A stretch of DNA of 52,585 nucleotides from contig JAZDEW010000023.1 of assembly GCA_043808425.1 (NCBI GenBank), positions 1 to 52,585 of the forward strand, in the 5' to 3' direction. The translations under genes were made by a program, and so were the position numbers. This stretch comes from Candidatus Omnitrophota bacterium (GTDB lineage Bacteria; Omnitrophota; Gorgyraeia; Gygaellales; Profunditerraquicolaceae). Positions 34,009-46,964 of this stretch are shown piece after piece. The notes beneath the pieces are model-generated. The model saw only the letters and a program-made list of their open reading frames with translations, was not told the DNA's origin and did no database searches. How positions within the stretch are numbered: the first letter of the stretch is position 1; each line of letters begins with the position of its first letter.

Positions 34009-34082
34009 CCCGCACCTTCTTTCCTAATCAATTCTATAAACCGTGTGACTTTAATATTCGAATATTTAGAAGATACGGGGTT
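34006..34082. repeat. Inverted repeat element ACCCCGCACCTTCT...AGAAGATACGGGGT
   Basis: 14-bp imperfect terminal IR; one arm also at 14991-15011, variant at 16455-16504. Confidence 0.65.
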
Positions 34083-34918
34083 CAAGCTCTCACCCTGATA
34101 GTTTTAGCCGGACAAACTTTTACGCATTCTTGACAAGAAGTACACTTATGATAATCAATTGCGGCCAGATTATCAACCCCTCGACTCTGCTCGGGGTTGA
34201 CCCTGAGCGTAGTCGAAGGGTCAGCTACATGTATAGCATTAAATTTACAAGCCTTTTCACACAATTTACAGGCAATACAACCTACCGGACAGACGCTCTT
34301 AACATCTTTACCTAAATCATCTGAACTACAGGCGACATAAACAGTATTCGTTACAGAAATAAGCGAAAATAATTTCTTCGGACAAGCCAAAACACATTTA
34401 TTGCACGCACGGCATTTGTTTCTATCCACTACCGGTAAGGCTTCCACAGACATGCTGATGGCGCCAAACGGGCAAACTTTTACGCAAGTGCCAAAACCCA
34501 AACAAGCAAAAACGCAACTCTTCTGCCCTCCTAAAACTAAATTCGCGGCAATACAATCATTAACTCCATCATATAAATATTTATCCTTAACTCTTAAACC
34601 GCCATTACAATGTAAAGTCGCAATCTTCTTAATCTGCTTCGTCAACGCTAAACCTAGAACCTCGGCAATCTTCTCTCTAGATTCATCGCTACAGACCCGA
34701 CAGCCTTCTACTACGCTCTTTCCACCGAACAAGCTCTCGGCGAAACTAAAACAGCCAGGATTACCGCATGCCCCGCAATTTGATCCGGGAAGCAAATGCT
34801 GCACCTGCTCTAATTTCGGATTAATCTGAACCGCTAATTTATTTGAAGCAACAGCTAAGCCTATGCCAAAGATTGCGCCTAAAACTCCTACAACTAAAAT
34901 CGCAACTAAGATTTCCAT
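34082..34918 (-). CDS. rnfB: Rnf complex subunit B
   Basis: N-terminal TM, LPGSNCGACGNPGC, several CxxCxxCxxxCP motifs. Confidence 0.94.
   Translation of the reverse strand: MEILVAILVVGVLGAIFGIGLAVASNKLAVQINPKLEQVQHLLPGSNCGACGNPGCFSFAESLFGGKSVVEGCRVCSDESREKIAEVLGLALTKQIKKIATLHCNGGLRVKDKYLYDGVNDCIAANLVLGGQKSCVFACLGFGTCVKVCPFGAISMSVEALPVVDRNKCRACNKCVLACPKKLFSLISVTNTVYVACSSDDLGKDVKSVCPVGCIACKLCEKACKFNAIHVADPSTTLRVNPEQSRGVDNLAAIDYHKCTSCQECVKVCPAKTIRVRA
34173..34222. repeat. TTCGAC...GCTCAGG family palindrome inserted in frame in rnfB
   Basis: TCAACCCCTCGACTCTGCTCGGGGTTGACCCTGAGCGTAGTCGAAGGGTCA, encoding DPSTTLRVNPEQSRGV. Confidence 0.8.
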
Positions 34919-34992
34919 AATTTACTTTAACAAAATTAACTTCTCCACAATTTTTCCTGCCAAATTATTTCCTATAAGAACAAACGCCTAAT

Positions 34993-35088
34993 TTATAAAA
35001 ATAAATTAGCGGGAAATCCGCTAAATTCCACAAAGCTTAAGCTTAAAATTGAGGCAACAATAAATACCAGAATAAAATTATTGAATGT
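34993..35088 (-). pseudogene. Decayed 3' remnant of rnfA
   Basis: Translates TFNNFILVFIVASILSLSFVEFSGF versus intact RnfA C-terminus TFKDLPLAFIIASMMCLAFMGFNGL; canonical position between rnfE and rnfB. Confidence 0.7.
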
Positions 35089-35682
35089 TCACGCTCTTTT
35101 ATCCTTGAGAAAATTAAATAATCCTAATAACAGGCCAATAACTAACAGAGCACCTGAGGGCATGCCAAAAACAAAAATCGGCTCAAACCCCTTAATCAAG
35201 ACATGCCCTAAGATCTGGCCGGAACCCAAAAATTCCCTGATCGCCGAAATTAGAATCAGCGCCAAGGTAAAACCTACACCCATACCTAAACCATCAAAAA
35301 ATGAACGCGCTAAATTATTCTTGCAAGCGAATGCTTCCGCGCGGCCCAAAACTATGCAATTAACCACAATTAAAGGAACATAAATACCTAAAGAACGGTC
35401 TAGCTGCGGGCTATAAGCCTTCATACACAACTCAATGATCGTAACAAAAGTAGCAATAATGACAATGTAGCAAGGTATACGAATTTTATCAGGGATTAAC
35501 TCTCTAACTAATGAAATAATTAAGCTAGATCCCAATAACACAAAGGTTGCCGCCACCCCCATGCCAATGGCATTAGAGACCGAGGTAGAAACTGCCAGTG
35601 TCGGACATAGCCCTAAAGCCAGAACAAATGTCGGATTTTCTTTAATGATACCCTTTGTAAATTCTTTTACTAGATTCTTCAT
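35089..35682 (-). CDS. rnfE: Rnf complex subunit E
   Basis: ENPTFVLALGLCPTLAV, IRIP, PLIVVNCIVLGRAEAFA. Confidence 0.95.
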   Translation of the reverse strand: MKNLVKEFTKGIIKENPTFVLALGLCPTLAVSTSVSNAIGMGVAATFVLLGSSLIISLVRELIPDKIRIPCYIVIIATFVTIIELCMKAYSPQLDRSLGIYVPLIVVNCIVLGRAEAFACKNNLARSFFDGLGMGVGFTLALILISAIREFLGSGQILGHVLIKGFEPIFVFGMPSGALLVIGLLLGLFNFLKDKRA

Positions 35683-35686
35683 TAAG

Positions 35687-35742
35687 CAGTTTTTCAGTTT
35701 TTTAATTTTTCGGTTTTTCAGTTTTTCGGTTTTTCAGTTTTC
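35687..35742. repeat. Octamer tandem repeat x7 spanning the rnfD stop
   Basis: CAGTTTTT CAGTTTTT TAATTTTT CGGTTTTT CAGTTTTT CGGTTTTT CAGTTTTC. Confidence 0.85.
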
Positions 35743-36682
35743 CAACAACCCCGTATATTCTATTCCTAGTATACCTGTCAATAAATGGTGTCGCCGCATT
35801 CATCATCAATATGGCATAAGATACGCCCTCCGGATAGCCTCCCCAAATCCGGATCACTGCCGTAAGCAAACCACAGCCCAGGCCAAAAATTAACTGCCCT
35901 TTAGCCGTTAAGGGAGTGGCCACATAATCCGTAGCCATAAAAAATGCTCCCAGAATCAGTCCGCCGCTGAGGATATGAAACAGCCAGTCTCCGCTAAAAA
36001 GCTGCGAGGCTCCAAAAACATAAGTTAAAACTGCCGTGGTACAAATATAAGTTACCGGAATATGCCAGGAAATATAACCTTTAATTAAAAGTAACGCTGC
36101 GCCGATTAATAACGCCAAGATACAAACTTCACCAATGCATCCGCCATGCTTACCCAAAAATAAATCCAAATAAGAAATATGCTCTAAAACCTTGCCTTCT
36201 TTAAGTATGGTCAAAGGAGTTGCGCTAGCGATGGCATCAAAACTAAACGGGGGGGTAAAGGTTGTCATATATTTTGGCCAGGAAGCCATCAAAAAAACTC
36301 TACCCACCAGCGCCGGGTTAAAAATATTTTGCCCTAAACCGCCAAAAACCTGCTTGCCCACCGCGATAGAAAACACTGCCCCCACCACCGGTAACCACAA
36401 CGGTACTCCGGGAGGAAGATTAAAAGCCAACAATATACCGGTAATTACCGCTGAGCCATCCAAAACCGTAATCTTTTTCTTCGTCCATATTCCAAAGACC
36501 AGCTCCGTTAATACTGCAGCCGTTACCGCGACTAAAGTTACCCATAAAGCGTCCAGTCCAAATATAATTACACCCGCAATCCCGGCAGGAACAAGGCTGA
36601 TAACCACCGTCCACATAATCCGGGCAATGGATTCTTGTTTATGAATATGTGGCGAACCTGAAACAATAAAATTATTTATCAT
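35702..36682 (-). CDS. rnfD: Rnf complex subunit D
   Basis: SPHIH, KQVFGGLGQNIFNPAL, FMN-site SATPL, GAFFMATD, GGYPEG. Confidence 0.95.
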   Translation of the reverse strand: MINNFIVSGSPHIHKQESIARIMWTVVISLVPAGIAGVIIFGLDALWVTLVAVTAAVLTELVFGIWTKKKITVLDGSAVITGILLAFNLPPGVPLWLPVVGAVFSIAVGKQVFGGLGQNIFNPALVGRVFLMASWPKYMTTFTPPFSFDAIASATPLTILKEGKVLEHISYLDLFLGKHGGCIGEVCILALLIGAALLLIKGYISWHIPVTYICTTAVLTYVFGASQLFSGDWLFHILSGGLILGAFFMATDYVATPLTAKGQLIFGLGCGLLTAVIRIWGGYPEGVSYAILMMNAATPFIDRYTRNRIYGVVGKLKNRKTEKPKN

Positions 36683-37307
36683 GCTTCAACTTTCTTTCGG
36701 TTCGCTCAACATGACCCTGAGCGAAGTCGACACTTCGACCCTGCTCAGTGTCAATGGTGAGCTTAGTCGAACCATCGAATGGGTCATTTTTTATCAATTC
36801 TTTTACCTCTTGCGCCTTTTTTATTACTGAATCCATTACCGCGCGGCTAGAAATTGTCGCACCGGCAATTGCCTGTACTCCGGATAGATCCAGGCTATTC
36901 TGTTGATTAAACTGCGCCGTAAATTTATCTTCCGTTATCCGCATGCCTAAACCCGGAGTCTCATTTAAAGAAAGAACTTTGATCGCGCTGATTTTTCCAT
37001 CCAGAAATATTCCGGCTAAAGTTTTAATTACGCTAGAATATCCTTTACCGCTGGCTTTAAAAACAAACCCGACCAGCTTATCCTGGCCATCAAATGCTTT
37101 ATAATATAATATCTCCTTAGCCGCAAGCGGCCCAACTGAAATAAATTTAACGGCCAGAGGCATAACTTCTTTGAGCGCTGCCTGTTCCTCAGCTAAAGCT
37201 CCGGCAAGAATTTTAGGGCTGGTGAGCATATTAACCGTGGCCAGCAACCCCGCGGCCACGACGCAAATAAGCCCCAAAATAAAACCGTACCGCATCATCT
37301 CTTTCAC
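36672..37307 (-). CDS. rnfG: Rnf complex subunit G with repeat-derived C-terminal extension
   Basis: N-terminal TM, ETPGLG, FMN-site AGATISS. Confidence 0.93.
   Translation of the reverse strand: MKEMMRYGFILGLICVVAAGLLATVNMLTSPKILAGALAEEQAALKEVMPLAVKFISVGPLAAKEILYYKAFDGQDKLVGFVFKASGKGYSSVIKTLAGIFLDGKISAIKVLSLNETPGLGMRITEDKFTAQFNQQNSLDLSGVQAIAGATISSRAVMDSVIKKAQEVKELIKNDPFDGSTKLTIDTEQGRSVDFAQGHVERTERKLKHDK
36695..36787. repeat. Nested TTCGAC...GCTCA family palindromes within the rnfG 3' end
   Basis: GACCCTGAGCGAAGTCGA / CTTCGACCCTGCTCAGTG / GGTGAGCTTAGTCGAACC units. Confidence 0.78.
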
Positions 37308-38572
37308 TTAGCTACCTCTAACTTTGCCCTTCTAATCGTCTGCACCAATCTGCGGCGGGAAGGGCAAACATAATTACATATGCCGCACTCAATGCAATCG
37401 CTCGCTCCATACTCTTTAGCTAAATTCCAAAGCGATCTTTCCGAAGCTAAATTAATCTGACAGGGTAAAAGGCCCACCGGACAGCCGCGCACGCAGGCCG
37501 CACAACGTATACAAGGATTTTCATCTAAAACTTTCACCTCATTTTTATTCATCAATAATAAACCGCTGCTGGATTTTATTATCGGCACCTGGTCCGTATA
37601 CTGAGCAATCCCCATCATTGGCCCACCGATAATAATTTTTGCCGGCTGCTCTTTAAGCGGTCCGCAAAATTCCACCAAATTCTTTATCGGAGTGCCAATA
37701 CGCACGCGTAAATTCTTAGGATTCTCCAGGCAACTGCCCGTAACCGTAACGATCCGTTCAATCAAGGGCTTACTATTATAAACCGCCTCATAAATCGCAT
37801 ACACCGTTGCTACATTTTGCACCAAAACACCGATATCAAAAGGCAGTTTGCCGCGGGGAATCTCTTTACCCAACAGATTCTGAATTAATTGTTTTTCCCC
37901 GCCCTGTGGATACTCCGATGGTAAAACCTTAACTTTGATATTAGAAACATCAGAAAAAGCTTTTATGGCTTCGGGTTTATTTTTCTCTATTCCTATATAA
38001 ATATCCTTTAGGCCTAAACATCTGGCAATTAGCGTGATCGCTGTGGATATCTGAGCTGTCTTCTCCACCATTAACCGCGCATCCGCCGTTAAAAATGGCT
38101 CACACTCTGCACCATTAATAATTAAAGTATCTAGCGGCTTAATCGGATTAAGTTTTATATGCGTAGGAAAGCTTGCCCCGCCCAGGCCCACTATTCCGGC
38201 ATCTAAAACAATTTTTCTCAAATCTGGCAACGTTAGCTTATCTATTTCTTGCGGATCTCGCGCGTGAAATTCTGCCGGATTATCCTGGCCGTCACCTTCG
38301 ATAACCACGGCTTTAGCCCGGCCTAAAACAGGGTGCGGCCAATTCTGAATAGCCACTACTTTGCCCGATATCGAGGCATGGATCGGCGCATATACATGAG
38401 CCGTAGCGCTGGCAATCTTCTGGCCCAGGCCAACCGTATCGCCAACTTTTACCTCCGGAATACATATCTTTCCTAAATGTTGAATTAAAGGAATATAAAC
38501 TTTCAAAGGAAGCGGCAAATTCTGCGTCACCTTATTTTCTGAATAATGTTTATTTTCCGCTAATCTAACCAT
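37304..38572 (-). CDS. rnfC: Rnf complex subunit C
   Basis: GIVGLGGASFPTHIK, NGAECEP, YPQGGEKQL, GGPMMG, two ferredoxin motifs. Confidence 0.95.
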   Translation of the reverse strand: MVRLAENKHYSENKVTQNLPLPLKVYIPLIQHLGKICIPEVKVGDTVGLGQKIASATAHVYAPIHASISGKVVAIQNWPHPVLGRAKAVVIEGDGQDNPAEFHARDPQEIDKLTLPDLRKIVLDAGIVGLGGASFPTHIKLNPIKPLDTLIINGAECEPFLTADARLMVEKTAQISTAITLIARCLGLKDIYIGIEKNKPEAIKAFSDVSNIKVKVLPSEYPQGGEKQLIQNLLGKEIPRGKLPFDIGVLVQNVATVYAIYEAVYNSKPLIERIVTVTGSCLENPKNLRVRIGTPIKNLVEFCGPLKEQPAKIIIGGPMMGIAQYTDQVPIIKSSSGLLLMNKNEVKVLDENPCIRCAACVRGCPVGLLPCQINLASERSLWNLAKEYGASDCIECGICNYVCPSRRRLVQTIRRAKLEVAK

Positions 38573-39813
38573 GCCACCTTCCGATTAAAAATCAAATTAA
38601 CTAGGCCCAGCACGCTTAATAAACATCCCACGCTAACCAAAATTAAGACATGAGAAAATCTTTCCGCAAGCATGCTGCTAATAAACATAAATAAAAGAAA
38701 ACCTAAGTGCATAACAATTTCTAAGGAACTAAAAATCTTACCCAGCATCTCATTATCACTAACATTATGAATAATCGTATTGGATGCGATCATGATCGGG
38801 GCAACAATCAAACCTAAACATAAAGCCAAAAATGCCGCGACAATAAAATTAGGATAGTAATGTATCCCTAAAGCAAAGAAAATCAGCATTATCCCGCTAA
38901 CAACTAGACAGGCAAATATAAGCTTATAAGGAGAAACGCGCTGGCCGAACTTGCCATAAATTAAAGAACCTAAAAATAAACCGATTCCTAAAAACATCAC
39001 CAAAAGCCCCAAATCCTTAGTTGCCGAATGCAGCGCCTTTTGCACAAAAACAATAACAACAACATAAACCGCTCCTAAAGCCGACCAAAGCGCAAAAATA
39101 AGCCCCGCGGTAAAACGGATATCTTTTTTTCGAATAAAATAAAAAAATCCTCCCTTGATCTCTTGAAATACCGATTTTCTAATTACCTCCACGGTTTCCT
39201 TGCTTACCTTTTTTAAATTCATCGCGGTCATAAACCGCCTAGAGATCAGGAAAATAAATGTCCCGGAAATTAAAAAACTTAAAGAATCTAAATAAAAACC
39301 ACTTTTAGCCCCGAGCTTCTCTACTAACACGCCACTTATCCCAAAACCCAGGATTGCCGCGATCATCCCGGAGGTATTAATTAAAGAGTTGGCAACCAGC
39401 AGGTCCTTTTTATCCACCAAGTCCGGTATAATGGAAAGTTTAGCCGGAACAAAAAACCTACCGATAGAAAAAGCAATAAAAATAATCAAATAAACCGGGC
39501 CCAAGCTTTTAGTATAAAATAAAAACAAGGGAATAGAAAAAACTAGTAAACTGCGCAAAAAATCACAGATATACATCGTGCGCCGCCTATCCCAACGATC
39601 CACATAAACCCCGGCTAAGGGGCCAATTAGAAATACCGGAATAATCGTAAAAGAAAGGATCTTGGCAATTTGCAACGTTGAACCCGGGGCACGTAAGTAG
39701 ACAAAGGCAATCAGGGCCATCTGGCCTAATCTATCCCCGAACTGAGAGATAATCTGACCACACCATAATAAAAAAAAGTTACGATTTTTTAAAACTTTAC
39801 GTAATCTGGCCAT
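38560..39813 (-). CDS. MFS transporter (DHA3/macrolide-efflux-like family)
   Basis: NFFLLWCGQIISQFGD, GVYVDRWDRR motif A, about 12 TM helices. Confidence 0.9.
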   Translation of the reverse strand: MARLRKVLKNRNFFLLWCGQIISQFGDRLGQMALIAFVYLRAPGSTLQIAKILSFTIIPVFLIGPLAGVYVDRWDRRRTMYICDFLRSLLVFSIPLFLFYTKSLGPVYLIIFIAFSIGRFFVPAKLSIIPDLVDKKDLLVANSLINTSGMIAAILGFGISGVLVEKLGAKSGFYLDSLSFLISGTFIFLISRRFMTAMNLKKVSKETVEVIRKSVFQEIKGGFFYFIRKKDIRFTAGLIFALWSALGAVYVVVIVFVQKALHSATKDLGLLVMFLGIGLFLGSLIYGKFGQRVSPYKLIFACLVVSGIMLIFFALGIHYYPNFIVAAFLALCLGLIVAPIMIASNTIIHNVSDNEMLGKIFSSLEIVMHLGFLLFMFISSMLAERFSHVLILVSVGCLLSVLGLVNLIFNRKVAWLD

Positions 39814-39901
39814 AGGTTAGAAAACTACTGTTAAGTCGATGAATGAAATCTCCCGCCTCAGACAAATTATCCGCTGTTTGCGGGAGAACCACTTAATACA
39901 A

Positions 39902-39974
39902 AGCCGATGGGGGGATTCGAACCCTCGACCTAATGTTTACGAAACATTTGCTCTACCAACTGAGCTACATCGGC
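39902..39974 (-). tRNA. tRNA-Thr(CGT)
   Basis: GCCGATGTAGCTCAGTTGGTAGAGC..AATGT-TT-CGT-AA-ACATT..GGTTCGAATCC..CATCGGC. Confidence 0.94.
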
Positions 39975-39986
39975 AATTTTTCCAAC

Positions 39987-40014
39987 ATTATACCAATTCC
40001 TGGATAATAGTCAA
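39987..40014 (-). promoter_or_regulatory. sigma70-type promoter of tRNA-Thr (possibly also MFS-rnf)
   Basis: TTGACT-16 bp-TATAAT with TG extension. Confidence 0.75.
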
Positions 40015-40048
40015 TTACTCGCTTAAAATTTAAAATTTAGGAAAAAGG

Positions 40049-40076
40049 TTGACAAATTCCTAATTCATGATATAAT
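40049..40076 (+). promoter_or_regulatory. sigma70-type promoter of the csp gene
   Basis: TTGACA-16 bp-TATAAT with TG extension. Confidence 0.8.
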
Positions 40077-40131
40077 TATTATGTAAGGATAGATTAGAGG
40101 AGAAACAAAGAAATTGATTAGTAACATGTAC

Positions 40132-40180
40132 ATGCCGCAAAGCAGTAACAAAAAATAACCATGCTTTGCGGCATTTTTTT
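40132..40180 (+). terminator. Terminator-like hairpin within the csp leader
   Basis: 13-bp perfect stem ATGCCGCAAAGCA/TGCTTTGCGGCAT followed by T6. Confidence 0.7.
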
Positions 40181-40277
40181 ATACACATAGATCCTTAAAT
40201 CCGCCGCTGAATTAATGGTGAAATTGAGGATCAATTTTCCGAACATTAAGTCGGGAAAATTGAGGAGGAGAAACAAA

Positions 40278-40478
40278 ATGGCAAAAGGTAAGGTAAAATG
40301 GTTCAGTAATCAAAAGGGTTACGGATTTGTTACTTCTGAAGATGGTAAAGATGTTTTCATTCACTTCAGTGCTATCACTGGAGAAGGATATAAATCTTTA
40401 GCAGAAGGCGATGAAGTTGAGTTCGAGGTTACGCAAGGCCCCAAAGGCGATCAAGCAACAAACGTAAAAAAAATATAA
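40278..40478 (+). CDS. Cold-shock protein (CspA family)
   Basis: GKVKWF, KGYGFV (RNP1), DVFIHFSAI (RNP2); GAGGAGG RBS. Confidence 0.97.
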
Positions 40479-40490
40479 ATTCCTAACCAA

Positions 40491-40530
40491 TAAAAAAGGC
40501 TGTTTTTTTAAGAAACAGCCTTTTTTATTT
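40491..40530. terminator. Bidirectional intrinsic terminator
   Basis: AAAAAAGGCTGTTT...AAACAGCCTTTTTT between convergent genes. Confidence 0.85.
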
Positions 40531-40593
40531 ATTTTTTTAGAAAAAATAAAACAGCCCGCCTTAAAATCTAAAATAAATGAAAGGATTATAAAA

Positions 40594-41865
40594 TCATGGT
40601 TTCCAAACGAACCAAACAAATAAATAAGAAGCAACCACTGCCGCAAAAGTAAAAGGAAGTCCGATTTTCATAAAATCTATAAACTTAACTTTATACCCCT
40701 CTTTTTTAAGCAAACCGCAAGAAACAATATTTGCAGAGGCTCCTATTGGGGTAATATTGCCTCCCAAACTTGCGCCAATCAGTAAACCAAAAAGAAACAA
40801 CGAAGGGTTTACGTCCAACTTATAAGCCATCTGGCCAACGACAGGAAGCATGGCGGCTAAAAAAGGAACATTATCTACGAACGCGGAAATAATAACAGAA
40901 ATAAATACGAGTAGCGTGTAACCAAAGAAAATATTTCCGCCGATTACATTTGATAAAGATTGCGCAATGTTACCTGTCCATCCGGTTAAGGTAAGGCTTC
41001 CAACTAAGATAAATATACCGACCAGGAATAACGCCGTATCCCAATCCAGCGATTTAATCAGCTCAGATACCCTTCCCCTGTTCGATACTTTCTCCCACGC
41101 TACTGAAATAATCCCCATAATCATGCAAATAATCCCCGCAGCAGAAGTAAACCCCGTATCAAAAAAAGATGAGGCTGCGAGTAAAACTATCAGCGCTACG
41201 AGGAAAATAGTAGGAACCCATGAATGGACCTTTTCAACAGGTATGACTTCAACTTTATGCTTCTCTTTGCGAAACAAAAACATCAAAACAAAAAACGAAA
41301 CAAAAGCGCCCAACTCAACCGCAAAAAATATACTCGGCTTGCCTCTATAAAGAAAAAAATCGCCAAAATTCATTTTCGTAAAGCCGGCCAAAAGCATGCT
41401 CGGAGGATCCCCAATCAATGTTGCCGCGCCTTGCAGGTTGCTCGATATCGCAATTGCAATCATCATCTTTATCGGGTTAAGATTAATTTTACGGGCAAGC
41501 GTCAAAGCAATAGGAGCAATAATCAGAACCGTTGCCACATTCTCTACAAATGCAGAAATAAAACCAGCCAGGACGCACATAAGCAGAATCGCCCAAGCAG
41601 TATTTCTTGATTTATCCACAATAATCTCAGCAATAACGGCAGGCACCCGGCTTTTCATAAAAACATCCGCTACGGCTAATGTCCCCACAAAAATACCCAT
41701 AACATTCCAATTTACAGAACCAAAAGCTTCAGGGAATGATAGCACTCGGGTTACTAAGAGTAAACCGGCTGCGCTTATCGCAACCAAAGGCCTTCTTCCG
41801 GGAAATACCACGAATAAAATATAGGCCAAAACAAAAAGAATGAGTGAAATAGCGCTTCTCTCCAT
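40594..41865 (-). CDS. ArsB/NhaD/CitMHS-superfamily (IT) ion transporter
   Basis: SAFVENVATV, SNLQGAATLIGDPP, SAFVDNVPF, GGNITPIGASAN. Confidence 0.9.
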   Translation of the reverse strand: MERSAISLILFVLAYILFVVFPGRRPLVAISAAGLLLVTRVLSFPEAFGSVNWNVMGIFVGTLAVADVFMKSRVPAVIAEIIVDKSRNTAWAILLMCVLAGFISAFVENVATVLIIAPIALTLARKINLNPIKMMIAIAISSNLQGAATLIGDPPSMLLAGFTKMNFGDFFLYRGKPSIFFAVELGAFVSFFVLMFLFRKEKHKVEVIPVEKVHSWVPTIFLVALIVLLAASSFFDTGFTSAAGIICMIMGIISVAWEKVSNRGRVSELIKSLDWDTALFLVGIFILVGSLTLTGWTGNIAQSLSNVIGGNIFFGYTLLVFISVIISAFVDNVPFLAAMLPVVGQMAYKLDVNPSLFLFGLLIGASLGGNITPIGASANIVSCGLLKKEGYKVKFIDFMKIGLPFTFAAVVASYLFVWFVWKP

Positions 41866-41867
41866 TC

Positions 41868-42011
41868 TTATTTATTAAACTTATCTGACGATTGGGCCTT
41901 CTTTTTGCCCTTTTCGCCTTGGTTACTTTTGATAATCAAATAAATATAAAAAAGCGCTACTACTCCTCCAAGAACATACACCGGCCAATCCTGCCATAAA
42001 TTTCCAGTCAT
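41868..42011 (-). CDS. 47-aa single-pass membrane protein; not in the ORF track
   Basis: MTGNLWQDWPVYVLGGVVALFYIYLIIKSNQGEKGKKKAQSSDKFNK; GAGAGG RBS; stop 2 nt before the transporter ATG. Confidence 0.72.
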   Translation of the reverse strand: MTGNLWQDWPVYVLGGVVALFYIYLIIKSNQGEKGKKKAQSSDKFNK

Positions 42012-42045
42012 GCTTAACCTCTCTATTAGTTTAAATTCGTTTTAA

Positions 42046-42654
42046 CTAAAATTTTAAACCGTTAAATCCCATAAATGCAAGACACATCATAGAAGCAATG
42101 ATAAATGCCAAAGGTAAATCCTTGAATGTCTTGGGTACATTACAAAGCTCAAGCCGCTCACGAATACCTGACATTAAAAGCATGGCCAAGGTATAGCCAA
42201 TTCCAACACATAGCCCATGAAATATCGAAAATATTAAACTTCCGGATACTGCCTTATTGTTTACAAAGAACATATCAATATTTAAAACCGCTACGCCTAA
42301 TACGGCGCAATTTGTAGTAATCAAAACAAGATAAATACCAAAGGCGCGATAAAGAGTGGGGCTCGTTTTTCTGATCACCATTTCCACTAACTGTACAAAA
42401 GCAGCAATGATTAAGATAAAAACTAAGGTGCGTAAATATGTTAAGTTAAAAGGAGCCAAAATAAATCTATAGACTAACCATGTGATAACAGATGATACTG
42501 TGGTTACAAACGTAACAGCCATGCTCATGGCAAACGCCTGCCTTGTGTTTTTAGATACAGCGACAAAAGGACACAGCCCCAAAAAACGCGACAAAATAAC
42601 ATTGTTAACAAAAACTGCCGAAATAAAAATCGCTAAAAACTGTCCAAAATTCAT
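42046..42654 (-). CDS. rnfA: Rnf complex subunit A, displaced from the rnf operon
   Basis: VNNVILSRFLGLCPF, LRTLVFILIIAAFVQLVE, LITTNCAVLG, GIRERL. Confidence 0.94.
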   Translation of the reverse strand: MNFGQFLAIFISAVFVNNVILSRFLGLCPFVAVSKNTRQAFAMSMAVTFVTTVSSVITWLVYRFILAPFNLTYLRTLVFILIIAAFVQLVEMVIRKTSPTLYRAFGIYLVLITTNCAVLGVAVLNIDMFFVNNKAVSGSLIFSIFHGLCVGIGYTLAMLLMSGIRERLELCNVPKTFKDLPLAFIIASMMCLAFMGFNGLKF

Positions 42655-42917: not shown

Positions 42918-44129
42918 CTAAAGATTAACAATATCTTCGGGATGATACAACGAAAGAAACAATAACATATAATTCCTTAAATGGCGCGTAATTAAAAAAT
43001 TGTTTTTTATATGCTCCCTCCCATTTTCTCCTAATTTCTTGGCGTACGCCGGACTGCTTAAAAGTTGTTTTATTGCAAAACTCGCTCCCTCAACAGAATG
43101 ACATAATAATCCTGAATATTTATGTTTTATCTGCAAAGGGATGTCGCCGACATTTGAAGCTACAACGGGTTTTGCCTTCCATAATGCCTCGGCAACTGTT
43201 AAGCCAAATCCCTCCCTGATAGACTTCTGGATAATTACATCTGAGGCCCTTTGCAGCGCATTAACCTCTATATCATTTTGAGGTAATAGTAAGATATGAA
43301 TATCCGGGTCTTTCTTAGCTTTTTCTTTAACCTCTTCAAGAACCCTGAATCCTTCCGGATCATCTTCTGCTGTCCCACCAGCCAACACCAGCTGGCAATC
43401 TGTATATTTTTTTACCTGCAAATATGCCTCAATTACGCCTATGGGATCTTTCAGGCGGTCAAAGCGGGATATCTGAGTAATGATTGGCTTATCTTTTTTG
43501 ATATCGTATTTTTTCAATACTAAATCAATTATTTCTTGTGGCAATTCCTTATTTTTATCACTTAACGGATCGATAGAAGGAGGAATTAAGAATTGCCTAA
43601 TGGGTAACTTCCTTGAAAAAGTCGGAGCGGAAAACACTGCTGAGTCGTATCGAATAATAAAATCCATAAGAAATCCCCAAACTTTTTCATCGGGATTAGA
43701 AACATCAATATGGCAACGCCAAAGCCACTTATTAACGGCTTTCTTTTTTATTAAGGCTATTGGTTGCGGGTCATGAATGAAAATAATGTCCCCGTAGGTA
43801 TCAACGCTTTCGATATTCTGCTGGCTAGTCTCCATGAATACTTCAAAATCTCTTTTAGTTATCTCCTCGGCTCTGCCATGCAAAGCGTTGTGAAACTTTT
43901 TTGTCACTGCAAAAAACTGCTCTCCACCCTTTATCACGTCCCATTTGGTATCTACCTCCAATTCCCTCAACAGCGGGACCATCCGGTTTAATATCTCCGC
44001 CACTCCCCCACCCACAGGAGTAGAATTTATATGCTGAATAACCTTGCCTTTTAACCGTTCACCAAGCAACCTTAAATCATCAATAATCGCTTGCCCCACT
44101 AAAGAAATATACTTTTCTATTTTTGCCAT
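42918..44129 (-). CDS. treT: Trehalose glycosyl-transferring synthase TreT-like (GT4)
   Basis: HINSTPVGGGVAEIL, TKKFHNALHG, HDPQP, WRCHID, SRFDRLKDP, QKSIREGFGLTVAEALWK. Confidence 0.88.
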   Translation of the reverse strand: MAKIEKYISLVGQAIIDDLRLLGERLKGKVIQHINSTPVGGGVAEILNRMVPLLRELEVDTKWDVIKGGEQFFAVTKKFHNALHGRAEEITKRDFEVFMETSQQNIESVDTYGDIIFIHDPQPIALIKKKAVNKWLWRCHIDVSNPDEKVWGFLMDFIIRYDSAVFSAPTFSRKLPIRQFLIPPSIDPLSDKNKELPQEIIDLVLKKYDIKKDKPIITQISRFDRLKDPIGVIEAYLQVKKYTDCQLVLAGGTAEDDPEGFRVLEEVKEKAKKDPDIHILLLPQNDIEVNALQRASDVIIQKSIREGFGLTVAEALWKAKPVVASNVGDIPLQIKHKYSGLLCHSVEGASFAIKQLLSSPAYAKKLGENGREHIKNNFLITRHLRNYMLLFLSLYHPEDIVNL

Positions 44130-44801
44130 TTAATTAACTATCTTTCTTTCAACAATTTGTATAATCTTATTCCTTAAATCCTCTAAAGTACTCGTGTAGG
44201 GATCAAAACTTGAAATATTATCTGCTAATTTCTTATCTCCCAGGGAATTTTCTATCCAAAACGCGAAATCATTAGTTGGCTTTTCAAGCCTAAGCCGCGC
44301 TTCAAAAATATGAAAATAAATAGAATCAATGGTAATTTTCTTTAAAACCTCTACGAATTCATTCAGATCATACGCGATATAGTTTGTCGGCAGAATAAAA
44401 CTGACGGATTTAATAAAATGAAATTCTTCTTCAGATCTGGCAAATTTCAACTTGGCCAGCGGATTATCCTTTAAATAGATCTCAATGGTTGAGGCGATCT
44501 TTTCCCGCAAATCCCGGATAGTTGAGTATTGTATGGTGTCAATACTCACCAGCCTTTCTCCAAGCTCATCTTCTCCAAGAATATCCGTTACCCAATAAGC
44601 AAAATCGTTAGGAGGCTCGGGAGAAAGATACTGATGCTGCTGTAAAAATCTATGGGTGTGGTGATAAATACATGAGCCAGATACTTGTTTAATAAGGGCC
44701 AAAAACTGGCCTAAGGTGGTCGCTCGCAAGCCGGTCAGCTCCGACAAATGCAATCTCGTGCAAAACCTAAATGGCTCTTTTGCTTTTATTAATTCTTCCA
44801 T
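44130..44801 (-). CDS. DUF5752 / OrfY-like protein (TreT partner)
   Basis: Internal two-fold repeat (PFRF..L.QF..IK.V...CIYHH..NDFAYW / FHF..L.EF..LK.I...SIYFH..NDFAFW); abuts treT. Confidence 0.75.
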   Translation of the reverse strand: MEELIKAKEPFRFCTRLHLSELTGLRATTLGQFLALIKQVSGSCIYHHTHRFLQQHQYLSPEPPNDFAYWVTDILGEDELGERLVSIDTIQYSTIRDLREKIASTIEIYLKDNPLAKLKFARSEEEFHFIKSVSFILPTNYIAYDLNEFVEVLKKITIDSIYFHIFEARLRLEKPTNDFAFWIENSLGDKKLADNISSFDPYTSTLEDLRNKIIQIVERKIVN

Positions 44802-44803
44802 AA

Positions 44804-45601
44804 TTAGCTATACTGTAAGGCTAGTATCGAACGTAAAAATTTAGCTACTTCTTCTGTATTCTTTAAATAATAATCAGCTTTGGAACTCCCGGATTTTCCC
44901 ACGAATACCGTTAACCCTTTTCTTTTTAAAGCCTTAAAAGCGTCCTCATCAGTTATATCATCTCCGATATAAACGGGCAAGGCATTCTTAACTCCTAAAA
45001 TAAATTGCTGTCTTGCTAGAAACCACAAGGCTGCCTTGCCTTTATCCCACTTAACCGGCGGCTTTATCTCATAAACTTTTTTACCGGCATTAACCTTTAT
45101 TTTATTACGCGCTATATAAGGACTGGTAACTTCAGAAATAATCTTCTCAAATACAGGCATATCTTTTTTGTCAACTAAGCGGTAGTGAATACTCAGTGTC
45201 AAGCCTTTATCCTCAACCAGCGCGCCCTTAATGCCAGAGAGCCGCTTCTGCATATCTTTAGCGATATTTCGTATAATTGATTTTAATCGCGATGTAACCT
45301 GGCTTTTAAATTTAATCTTCGCCCCTTCGATCTCCAAACCGTGGTTACCAGCGTAGACGATACCGCCTATCCCGACTATATTTTTTATATCCTCCAGCTT
45401 CCTTCCGCTGAGAATACCTATTTTACAATAAAAACTTCTGGATAATTTCTGTAATAATTCTTTTGTATTCTTATGGATAACTGCCTTACTCGGAGTCTTG
45501 ACAATAGGCGTTAATGTCCCATCATAATCCAATAAAAGTAAAATAAATTTATTTCTTAACAGCTCTTTTATCTTACTAAATTGCGAAAATAAATATTCCA
45601 T
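44804..45601 (-). CDS. otsB: Trehalose-6-phosphate phosphatase
   Basis: HAD motifs LDYDGTLTPI, SGR, GNHGLE, WDKG, YIGDDITDEDAF. Confidence 0.94.
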   Translation of the reverse strand: MEYLFSQFSKIKELLRNKFILLLLDYDGTLTPIVKTPSKAVIHKNTKELLQKLSRSFYCKIGILSGRKLEDIKNIVGIGGIVYAGNHGLEIEGAKIKFKSQVTSRLKSIIRNIAKDMQKRLSGIKGALVEDKGLTLSIHYRLVDKKDMPVFEKIISEVTSPYIARNKIKVNAGKKVYEIKPPVKWDKGKAALWFLARQQFILGVKNALPVYIGDDITDEDAFKALKRKGLTVFVGKSGSSKADYYLKNTEEVAKFLRSILALQYS

Positions 45602-45662
45602 GCCTAAATCTTGCCCAATGATATCAATTCCGTAATAATATTCCCTCACCCGGCGATAAACG

Positions 45663-45775
45663 TTATTTTCCAAAATAACTTTTCGCGTTTATTCCGTTAT
45701 AATCTAAAAACAACATTACATATTTATTGCTCAATTTTTCTTTTAGCTTACCCCAAGCGTTAAGATATTTTTCAT
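45663..45775 (-). pseudogene. Frameshifted, truncated N-terminal remnant of a second otsB
   Basis: ATG out of frame with YLNAWGKLKEKLSNKYVMLFLDYNG; compare OtsB YLFSQFSKIKELLRNKFILLLLDYDG. Confidence 0.65.
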
Positions 45776-45779
45776 ATTC

Positions 45780-46964
45780 CTAATGATGCTCAATAGTTAT
45801 TTCGCCCGCCTTTTGCAAAGCGTATTTAGTACATAAAGGGCCAAATAATTCATAGATAACGGTAGTGGCGACAATCGTAGTAAAAATCATGCCGCCAACA
45901 TTTGGAAAATCGTTTTTAGCGACTAAGGCGCAGCCTAAAGCAACGCCTGCTTGTGGCACTAAGCCTAAGCCCAAATATTTTTTTATGCTATTAGAAGCGC
46001 CAGAAATATGCGCGCCTAATTTCGCCCCAGCTACCTTACCAATCACACGGAATATTAAATATGCCAAACCAATTAATCCTAATTTAGACAAAAGCCCTAT
46101 TTCTAAATTTGCCCCGGCCAAAACAAAAAAAAGTAAAAATAGCGGAGAATCTACTGTTTTTAAAACCTCAAAAGGATTGGAGGAGGATTTGTTGACATTA
46201 ACTAAAACTGCCCCTAAAAACATACTTGCTAAGAGTACGGACAAGTGAAGCCAAGTAGCTATTCCTATAGTTGAAAAAATAAATCCAAGAGTAAAAATCA
46301 GAAGCTCTGCTTGCGTACGAATAAAACGAGAAAAATAAGACAATAGCATAGCCATGGCGCCCCCTAAAATAAAAGCGCCCAATATGCTCAAGATAGAGTT
46401 AAAAATTACCTTAATCAAAAAAAATGTATCTACCATGTGGCTATGAATAGCCTGGGATATGGCCAAAGAAATAGCAAAAATAATAAGGCACCAGGCATCA
46501 TCAATAGCAACGACCCCTAAAAGCGTATCCGTAAAATTGCCTTTAGCGCGATATTCTCTTATCACCATTACCGTAGCCGCAGGTGCAGTAGCAGAAGCAA
46601 TCGCCCCAAAAAGAAGAGCAATATAAAAAGGTTGCCTTAGAATAAACAAAAATATTAATGTGACTAAAAACCATGCCCCACATGCCTCTAAAACCGAAAT
46701 CCAGACTACTGACTTACCAATCTTACGAAAGCTATCACGAGAAAAATTTTGACCGATACTAAAGGCAATTATTCCTAAAACTATTTTTGAAATTAAACCT
46801 GACATATTAAGAATTGCTACAGGAATAAGATTTAACAATGAAGATCCGATGAGTATCCCTACCATAAGATAAGCGGTTACTGCTGGAAACTTAATTTTAC
46901 TTATCAACCTGGCAGAAAATAAACCTGCAAGCAGAATAAAACCAAATCCTAATATAGTATTCAC
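45780..46964 (-). CDS. Cation:proton antiporter (Na+/H+ exchanger family)
   Basis: PAVTAYLMVGILIG, ASATAPAAT, VAIDDA, FFVLAGA, PQAGVALG. Confidence 0.9.
   Translation of the reverse strand: MNTILGFGFILLAGLFSARLISKIKFPAVTAYLMVGILIGSSLLNLIPVAILNMSGLISKIVLGIIAFSIGQNFSRDSFRKIGKSVVWISVLEACGAWFLVTLIFLFILRQPFYIALLFGAIASATAPAATVMVIREYRAKGNFTDTLLGVVAIDDAWCLIIFAISLAISQAIHSHMVDTFFLIKVIFNSILSILGAFILGGAMAMLLSYFSRFIRTQAELLIFTLGFIFSTIGIATWLHLSVLLASMFLGAVLVNVNKSSSNPFEVLKTVDSPLFLLFFVLAGANLEIGLLSKLGLIGLAYLIFRVIGKVAGAKLGAHISGASNSIKKYLGLGLVPQAGVALGCALVAKNDFPNVGGMIFTTIVATTVIYELFGPLCTKYALQKAGEITIEHH

Follow-up and report, generated by a model that had tools for sequence, protein, structure and literature searches.

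The rnf operon of a Candidatus Omnitrophota bacterium (assembly GCA_043808425.1, hereafter G000) has lost its rnfA gene, and we consider it probable that this core subunit gene of the Rnf complex has been displaced by a paralog, here called A2, which stands alone upstream of the operon. We analyzed the 52,585 nucleotides of contig JAZDEW010000023.1 (contig C23, hereafter the window), which belongs to a metagenome-assembled genome (MAG) of 1.27 Mb in 78 contigs with an estimated completeness of 92.8%. According to this paralog displacement, the operon MFS-rnfC-G-D-E-A-B would be the ancestral state of the family, accompanied in a minority of genomes by an old stand-alone A2, and both rnfA copies would once have coexisted in the lineage of G000. 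A 521-nt deletion between imperfect direct repeats, one at the start of rnfA and the other at codons 175-180, would then have removed the operonic copy, leaving a mutated start, an early stop, the last 27 codons, a hairpin and the spacer before rnfB. A2 would now complete Rnf, being made from another transcription unit than rnfCGDE-B.

On the minus strand the operon reads rnfC-rnfG-rnfD-rnfE-gap-rnfB, the order given in the original prediction and confirmed here by the gene coordinates and by subunit calls with NCBIfam models. All five rnf genes matched Rnf subunit models: rnfC (37304..38572, 422 aa, TIGR01945 with 509 bits), rnfG (36672..37307, 211 aa, rnfG models with E-values of 3.5e-29 and 5.8e-27), rnfD (35702..36682, 326 aa, TIGR01946 with 343 bits), rnfE (35089..35682, 197 aa, ending in TGA, TIGR01948 with 249 bits against a cut-off of 213, and also matching Pfam PF02508) and rnfB (34082..34918, 278 aa, rnfB models with E-values from 2.7e-67 to 5.9e-26, 82% identical to the RnfB of the relative G017). 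These genes are full-length and 77-93% identical to those of relatives. Counting A2, the only source of RnfA, the genome holds intact genes for a complete six-subunit Rnf (A, B, C, D, E, and G), five of which score above the NCBIfam subfamily cut-offs and one, rnfG, slightly below (TIGR01947, 95 vs. 102 bits).

Between rnfE and rnfB lies a gap of 170 nt (34919-35088, minus strand). Its alignment with the intact operonic genes of G017 and of a second relative, G012, identified 87 nt of operonic rnfA (35092-35006), 521 nt being gone as measured by the offset of the alignment to G017: from the 5' end roughly a dozen bases are kept, followed by the last 27 codons. In the 5' remnant, which together with the deletion junction occupies 35079..35092 (minus strand), the old ATG has become GTG and codon 5 is TAA; the GTG overlaps the rnfE stop and is the counterpart of the ATGA in which the rnfE stop and the rnfA start overlap in relatives. 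The 3' remnant (35006..35087, minus strand) corresponds to rnfA nt 526-609, codons 176-202, with one base lost near the old stop, and it reads FVEF in place of the FMGF shared without exception by the full RnfA sequences in the alignment. The remainder of the gap (34919..35005, minus strand) lies within the local DNA alignment to G017 and is homologous to the rnfA-rnfB spacer of that genome, the final 26 nt 5' of the rnfB ATG being identical in the two.

The homology of the gap to rnfA was well above the level of chance. Aligned with the rnfA and spacer of G017, the gap DNA scored 103, against a mean of 21.6 and a maximum of 30 for shuffled sequences (0 of 300 as high). Translated directly after the rnfE TGA, it yields a 31-residue peptide with a stop at 34995-34993, and the first 25 residues are identical, without gaps, to the operonic RnfA of both G017 and G012 at 16 positions and to residues 176-200 of the distal RnfA at 11. 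Nucleotide identity was likewise higher to the operonic rnfA of these relatives (56/75 for G017, 58/75 for G012) than to the genome's own distal copy (49/75). The best ungapped BLOSUM62 score of the peptide was 76 with the RnfA of G017 (maximum of the shuffles 47) and 59 with the distal RnfA (mean of the shuffles 27.5, maximum 50), and in neither case did any of 2000 shuffles score as high. The ungapped alignment to the C-terminus of the distal RnfA, on which the original prediction was built, thus outperforms shuffled hydrophobic sequence and stands, except for the residues TF; these fall in the deletion junction and cannot be counted as C-terminal homology, because the junction repeat also matches the 5' end of rnfA and they can be assigned to neither end. 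Significant homology at the syntenic position between rnfE and rnfB goes together with a destroyed reading frame and a loss of constraint (521 nt missing, a stop at codon 5, a frame shift, and FVEF), as in a pseudogene remnant, and these alignments show the 170-nt gap to be a genuine scar of operonic rnfA. No Rfam family matched in the scar.

The intact relatives have an imperfect direct repeat at rnfA nt 5-18 and 525-538, and the junction falls within it, so the deletion looks like the outcome of slippage or illegitimate recombination between short repeats. The geometry of such a repeat-to-repeat deletion would also explain why the 3' piece reads in the frame of rnfE and not in that of the old rnfA start. 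One could suppose instead that the remnant is still used, the TGA of rnfE being read through to add a hydrophobic tail of 31 residues as a seventh RnfE helix. We find this hardly credible: although the remnant follows in frame directly past the TGA, the frame is set by the deletion itself (through the ATGA overlap the repeat at rnfA nt 5 is in the rnfE frame) and would arise by chance in 1 case in 3. Moreover, residues invariant in RnfA are changed in the remnant, translation table 11 gives normal long open reading frames, which makes TGA a stop here, and no recoding signal was seen. The end of the old rnfA forms a terminator-like hairpin (35006..35024, minus strand; a 7-bp stem, then a T-rich run), predicted by a consensus scan and the same in G017. 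The rnfA-rnfB spacers of relatives (loci L004, L007, and L011) contain differing small palindromic inserts (0 to 62 nt); those of G012 and G023 form GC-rich hairpins, and G017 and G000 have the terminator-like hairpin.

The distal gene A2 (42046..42654, minus strand, 202 aa) belongs to the RnfA family: it scored 247.6 bits with TIGR01943 (cut-off 229.3) and 190 bits with PF02508, against 156 bits with the nqrE and 90 bits with the rnfE model. A search of the whole assembly with PF02508 returned only two Rnf-Nqr genes, rnfE and A2, and no further rnfA and no other rnf or nqr operon was found in this 92.8% complete assembly, so that A2 is its sole intact rnfA. The gene is not encoded beside rnfE in the operon; it lies 6.4 kb from rnfE and 3.5 kb upstream of rnfC, in agreement with the intact RnfA announced at about 7 kb. 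This location has no bearing on its membership of the protein family but is its unusual feature.

Forty relatives were searched and 36 gave a match; in 34 of these rnfE is directly followed by rnfA on the same contig, the usual position between rnfE and rnfB that the original prediction had assumed, and in the remaining two the locus is truncated by a contig end. Those contig-end cases aside, none of the 36 lacked both A2 and an operonic rnfA. Operonic-type rnfA was present in 42 of the 48 genomes of the genus. A2-type copies are much rarer, with 8 carriers among 234 genomes from the order: G000, G012, G055, G056, and G061 in the genus, where the distal-type copies are 85-90% identical to A2, G157 and G166 from two other genera of the same family, and G039, a more distant A2 member from another family. 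Six of these eight carriers (G012, G055, G061, G157, G166, and G039) also have an intact rnfE-rnfA-rnfB, and G234 and G235 combine operonic rnfA with a second kind of stand-alone rnfA; relatives holding both an intact operonic gene and a second copy, which were to be expected if the two once coexisted, thus do exist. The sister genomes G017 and G023 have the operonic copy only. G056 resembles G000 in that A2 is its only rnfA: rnfD, cut by the contig end, is followed by rnfE, a gap of 69 nt, and rnfB, the three genes matching over nearly their full length.

Several other candidates in these genomes were examined and set aside. The 69-nt gap of G056 was rejected as a second scar, since its alignment to four operonic rnfA genes reached a score of 22 where shuffled sequences averaged about 18.7 (35-43 of 300 shuffles as high). 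The fragment in G036 (contig C27) is a gene truncated where the contig ends, not a scar. A 100% match to RnfE (locus L061) is a short piece of a G012-like record; positions 1-335 of L061 hold an inverted rnfE piece fused to the end of rnfE, probably an artefact of assembly. Four genomes (G004, at C1:50654-51825; G030, contig C19; G037, contig C63; and G042, contig C45) carry a second, divergent Rnf-Nqr pair, about 39-41% identical to A2, which may correspond to an nqr or to a second rnf-type operon.

A tree built from 34 RnfA sequences grouped the A2 copies in a single clade (support 97/94), whose sister group comprised the operonic copies from the genus and G039; the two together were well separated from the other families (100/99). 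A tree of 54 sequences obtained with a quick method recovered a clade of the family's operonic copies (94), with A2 (90) and the pair of second stand-alone copies (99) outside it. Because A2 falls outside the family operonic clade in the RnfA trees, it is best described from this phylogeny as an old paralog and not as a relocated operonic gene. The opposite view, that the distal gene is the original operonic rnfA moved 7 kb upstream, could draw on the presence of a single intact copy on the same strand and contig; it is already contradicted by the grouping of A2 with the stand-alone copies of other genomes, by 11 fixed differences between A2 and the operonic RnfA of the genus, by the operonic-type residues in the scar, and by the six to eight relatives that hold both copies, and we give it practically no weight. 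The scar, the separate paralog clade, and these relatives all agree with the proposal that two rnfA copies coexisted and that the operonic one was deleted.

A tree of concatenated RnfE and RnfB from G000 and 23 relatives placed the five A2 carriers of the genus and the operon-only G017 and G023 in a clade of seven genomes (99/98). This clade displays three states: both copies (G012, G055, and G061), the operonic copy only (G017 and G023), and A2 only (G000 and G056). A constraint that unites G000 and G056 lowers the log-likelihood by 7.2 units, with p = 0.044 in the approximately unbiased (AU) test, and the scar of G000 shares a derived 3' end and spacer with the intact rnfA of G017; it is because of these two observations that we regard separate losses of the operonic rnfA in G000 and G056 as likely, although not proven.

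The sequence of A2 is that of a gene under constraint. Cys28 and Cys116, which we take as cluster ligands from their position and not from a structure, are invariant in 27 operonic RnfA and present in all seven A2 sequences compared; A2 also conserves 65-68 of the 69 positions that are otherwise invariant, and its identity to operonic RnfA within the genus is 72-78%. Pairwise ratios of nonsynonymous to synonymous substitution (dN/dS), computed with our own Nei-Gojobori script, were 0.04-0.17 for A2 genes and 0.03-0.08 for operonic pairs. A2 thus appears to be under purifying selection and looks functional. The A2 of G000 and that of G056 have 11 private residue changes each, against 2, 5, 6, and 8 in four carriers of both copies from the family, and 3 of the 11 in each move toward the operonic state; with only two genomes, a faster change of A2 as the sole copy is not established. 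Gene conversion between A2 and the lost copy is suggestive only: the A2 of G000 has the operonic state at 7 of 75 diagnostic sites, four of them at nt 468-556, in a window chosen post hoc and interleaved with A2-state sites.

RnfA and RnfE are described as homologous six-helix proteins that form a compact heterodimer, in which four cysteines, of which each protein supplies two, bind a [2Fe-2S] cluster midway through the membrane, and which passes an electron across the membrane by alternating access in both the Rnf and NQR pumps (2025 review PMC12174285, section 14). Since this heterodimer is obligate, a complex without RnfA cannot work, and the five remaining genes are conserved and intact, A2 would, on the most economical view, fill the place of RnfA. 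From its identity to operonic RnfA and the intact partner genes, we infer that A2 assembles with RnfE and that Rnf now uses it.

Alternatively, Rnf could simply be broken, the deletion of rnfA being a recent inactivating lesion and A2 having a job of its own with the neighboring trehalose and permease genes, outside Rnf. Purifying selection on A2 also in genomes with an operonic copy, which implies some role of its own, and the terminator-like hairpin that now follows rnfE would both fit this explanation. We nevertheless judge it unlikely, since the five other rnf genes are full-length and conserved, G056 is in the same state with its other rnf genes matching nearly in full, operonic rnfA is missing from no genome that lacks A2 (34/36, the exceptions being contig ends), and A2 retains both cluster cysteines and a high identity to operonic RnfA.

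Several points weigh against paralog displacement. A terminator-like hairpin, as predicted by the consensus scan, now stands between rnfE and rnfB; the lesion might be of recent date, with the Rnf of this strain already non-functional; and none of the RNA runs screened contains this stretch. The gap of G056, in which 35-43 of 300 shuffles aligned as well, offers no detectable scar for comparison, and the independence of the two losses is only marginal at the AU value given above. Furthermore, a MAG of 78 contigs and 92.8% completeness could have left a further rnfA in unassembled DNA. Finally, none of the contigs from four public runs covers 34948-35109, so that the deletion is seen in this assembly only; these contigs are short and of low depth, and the fraction of sampled words present is 0.46 in the best run and at most 0.15 in the others.

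These last points invite the suspicion that the gap is an assembly artefact, an intact operonic rnfA having disappeared through the collapse or mis-joining of strains in a short-read MAG, all the more since one of the runs holds a relative with a G012-type spacer, a sign that related strains co-occur. Such an origin seems very improbable to us. The remnants carry changes of their own (the start codon, the stop at codon 5, the invariant residues, and the loss of 1 nt) that could not be created by mis-joining intact copies, the breakpoint coincides with a short direct repeat, as happens in real deletions, and the separately assembled G056 is also without operonic rnfA. We retain paralog displacement as the best explanation.

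The region between A2 and the operon suggests that the two are expressed independently. Upstream of rnfC, the MFS transporter gene (38560..39813, minus strand), whose 3' end overlaps the rnfC start and which also precedes rnfC in relatives, is preceded by a tRNA-Thr (CGT) gene (39902..39974, minus strand; Rfam 71 bits, also detected by ARAGORN) with a strong near-consensus promoter-like site at 40014-39987 (11/12 in the scan). Beyond it lie a cold-shock protein gene, csp, on the plus strand (40215..40478; Pfam CSD, E-value 2.5e-28; 82-88% in blastn to loci L040 and L035) and a bidirectional terminator-like hairpin with a 19-bp palindrome (40489..40529), situated between csp and a permease gene of the CitMHS/ion-transporter superfamily (40594..41865, minus strand, 423 aa; PF03600, E-value 9.5e-59) that follows A2. 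Because this hairpin, the opposite-strand csp, and the tRNA-Thr with its promoter intervene, A2 is likely to be transcribed separately from rnfCGDE-B, as far as consensus scans can tell. The csp-tRNA-MFS-rnf synteny is common to G000, G017, and G012, and the A2 block adjoins the rnf operon only in G000. In loci L035, L040, L044, and L050-L070, and in the window (34082-39813) but for the lost rnfA, the operon order is MFS-rnfC-G-D-E-A-B, with rnfG preceding rnfD, and the overlap of the MFS gene with the rnfC start is kept across genera; the usual rnf order is C-D-G-E-A-B, from which that of the family differs.

Upstream of A2 on the same strand are treT (42918-44129; NCBIfam TreT, E-value 4.7e-112), a DUF5752 gene (44130-44801; Pfam DUF5752, E-value 3.8e-67), and otsB (44804-45673; NCBIfam T6PP, E-value 7.6e-51), preceded by a gene of the Na+/H+ exchanger family (CPA; 45780..46964, minus strand; PF00999, E-value 6.3e-35), so that the distal rnfA does lie beside trehalose genes and ion transporters, as had been proposed. 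The order otsB-DUF5752-treT followed by A2 was found in G000, G055, G056, G166, and G039, and the same genes accompany the second stand-alone type (locus L058). A2 is followed by the CitMHS permease gene in G000, G012, G061, and G166; the permease gene is in pieces in G055 (L038, 6871-7468), with a large internal part gone, and absent after A2 in G056 and G039. The DUF5752 gene always stands between otsB and treT in these clusters, and a literature search at the level of listings returned no paper on DUF5752. The 180-nt spacer between A2 and the permease gene (41866-42045) is 72-95% conserved over 39-146 nt in four other carriers (L038, L039, L041, and L042) and may be a leader or regulatory element; Rfam gave no match beside A2, this spacer included.

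Because treT is present, with a wide spread of identities, in 154 of the 234 genomes of the order and A2 in only 8, A2 is, from this distribution, a rare addition to a common trehalose cluster. The identity of TreT is discordant with relatedness, the protein of G000 being 94% identical to that of G010, 90-92% to those of genomes from other genera (90% for G166), and 76-78% to those of G055 and G056, which are close in the Rnf tree. Such a pattern points to a pair of treT lineages or to exchange inside the family. For A2, G000 has a dS of 0.47 with G166, compared with 0.68 for G055 and 2.06 for G056. Horizontal transfer of the A2 cassette is hinted at by these values but not shown, treT being common and its identities widely spread.

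The neighborhood of A2 also permits a more speculative proposal, which we hold only tentatively. A2 may be a condition-specific RnfA isoform, encoded beside trehalose and ion-transporter genes and swapped into the RnfA-RnfE core when these are induced, for instance under osmotic or salt stress, where it would alter gating or ion coupling; in G000 and G056 it would then have become the sole form.

The subunits encoded in G000 are the same six as in canonical contiguous rnf operons, which read rnfCDGEAB in Clostridia and Acetobacterium and rnfABCDGE (or rsxABCDGE) in Proteobacteria. The difference is that the rnfA of G000 lies outside the operon, past the MFS gene, the tRNA, csp, and a terminator-like hairpin. 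More than one rnfA per genome, as in the relatives of G000, is also the case in Azotobacter vinelandii, which has two differently regulated rnf operons, rnf1 and rnf2; these are whole-operon duplicates, whereas A2 is a single subunit gene, alone beside trehalose and transporter genes, and the only copy in two genomes. The coexistence of genomes with both copies, with the operonic copy only, and with A2 only in the clade of seven resembles the differential (reciprocal) loss of paralogs after duplication, a general concept like paralogous gene displacement. The origin proposed for NQR in section 11 of PMC12174285, from a duplicated rnf operon in which rnfB was lost and replaced by NqrF, is similar in that one lost subunit gene was made good by another gene in the same enzyme family; there, the replacement was non-homologous and produced a new enzyme, whereas A2 is a 72-78% identical paralog and the enzyme is presumably still Rnf. 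A search of the literature at the level of listings found no description of a stand-alone rnfA paralog, and the passages of PMC8542988 on Omnitrophota mention Rnf and trehalose synthesis and no rnfA paralog.

Paralog displacement is nothing new in principle; the interest here lies in a core subunit of a respiratory pump whose surviving copy is in another transcription unit. G000 provides a clean example of such a subunit being handed over to a paralog, and the two forms of RnfA, which differ at 11 fixed positions, lend themselves to experiment, since either could be combined with the same RnfCDGEB. For annotation, an rnf operon without rnfA in these genomes is not necessarily defective. Should A2 be a condition-specific isoform, the membrane subunits of the Rnf pump would be exchangeable, and genomes such as G012, G055, and G166, which carry both copies, would allow the two forms to be compared directly.

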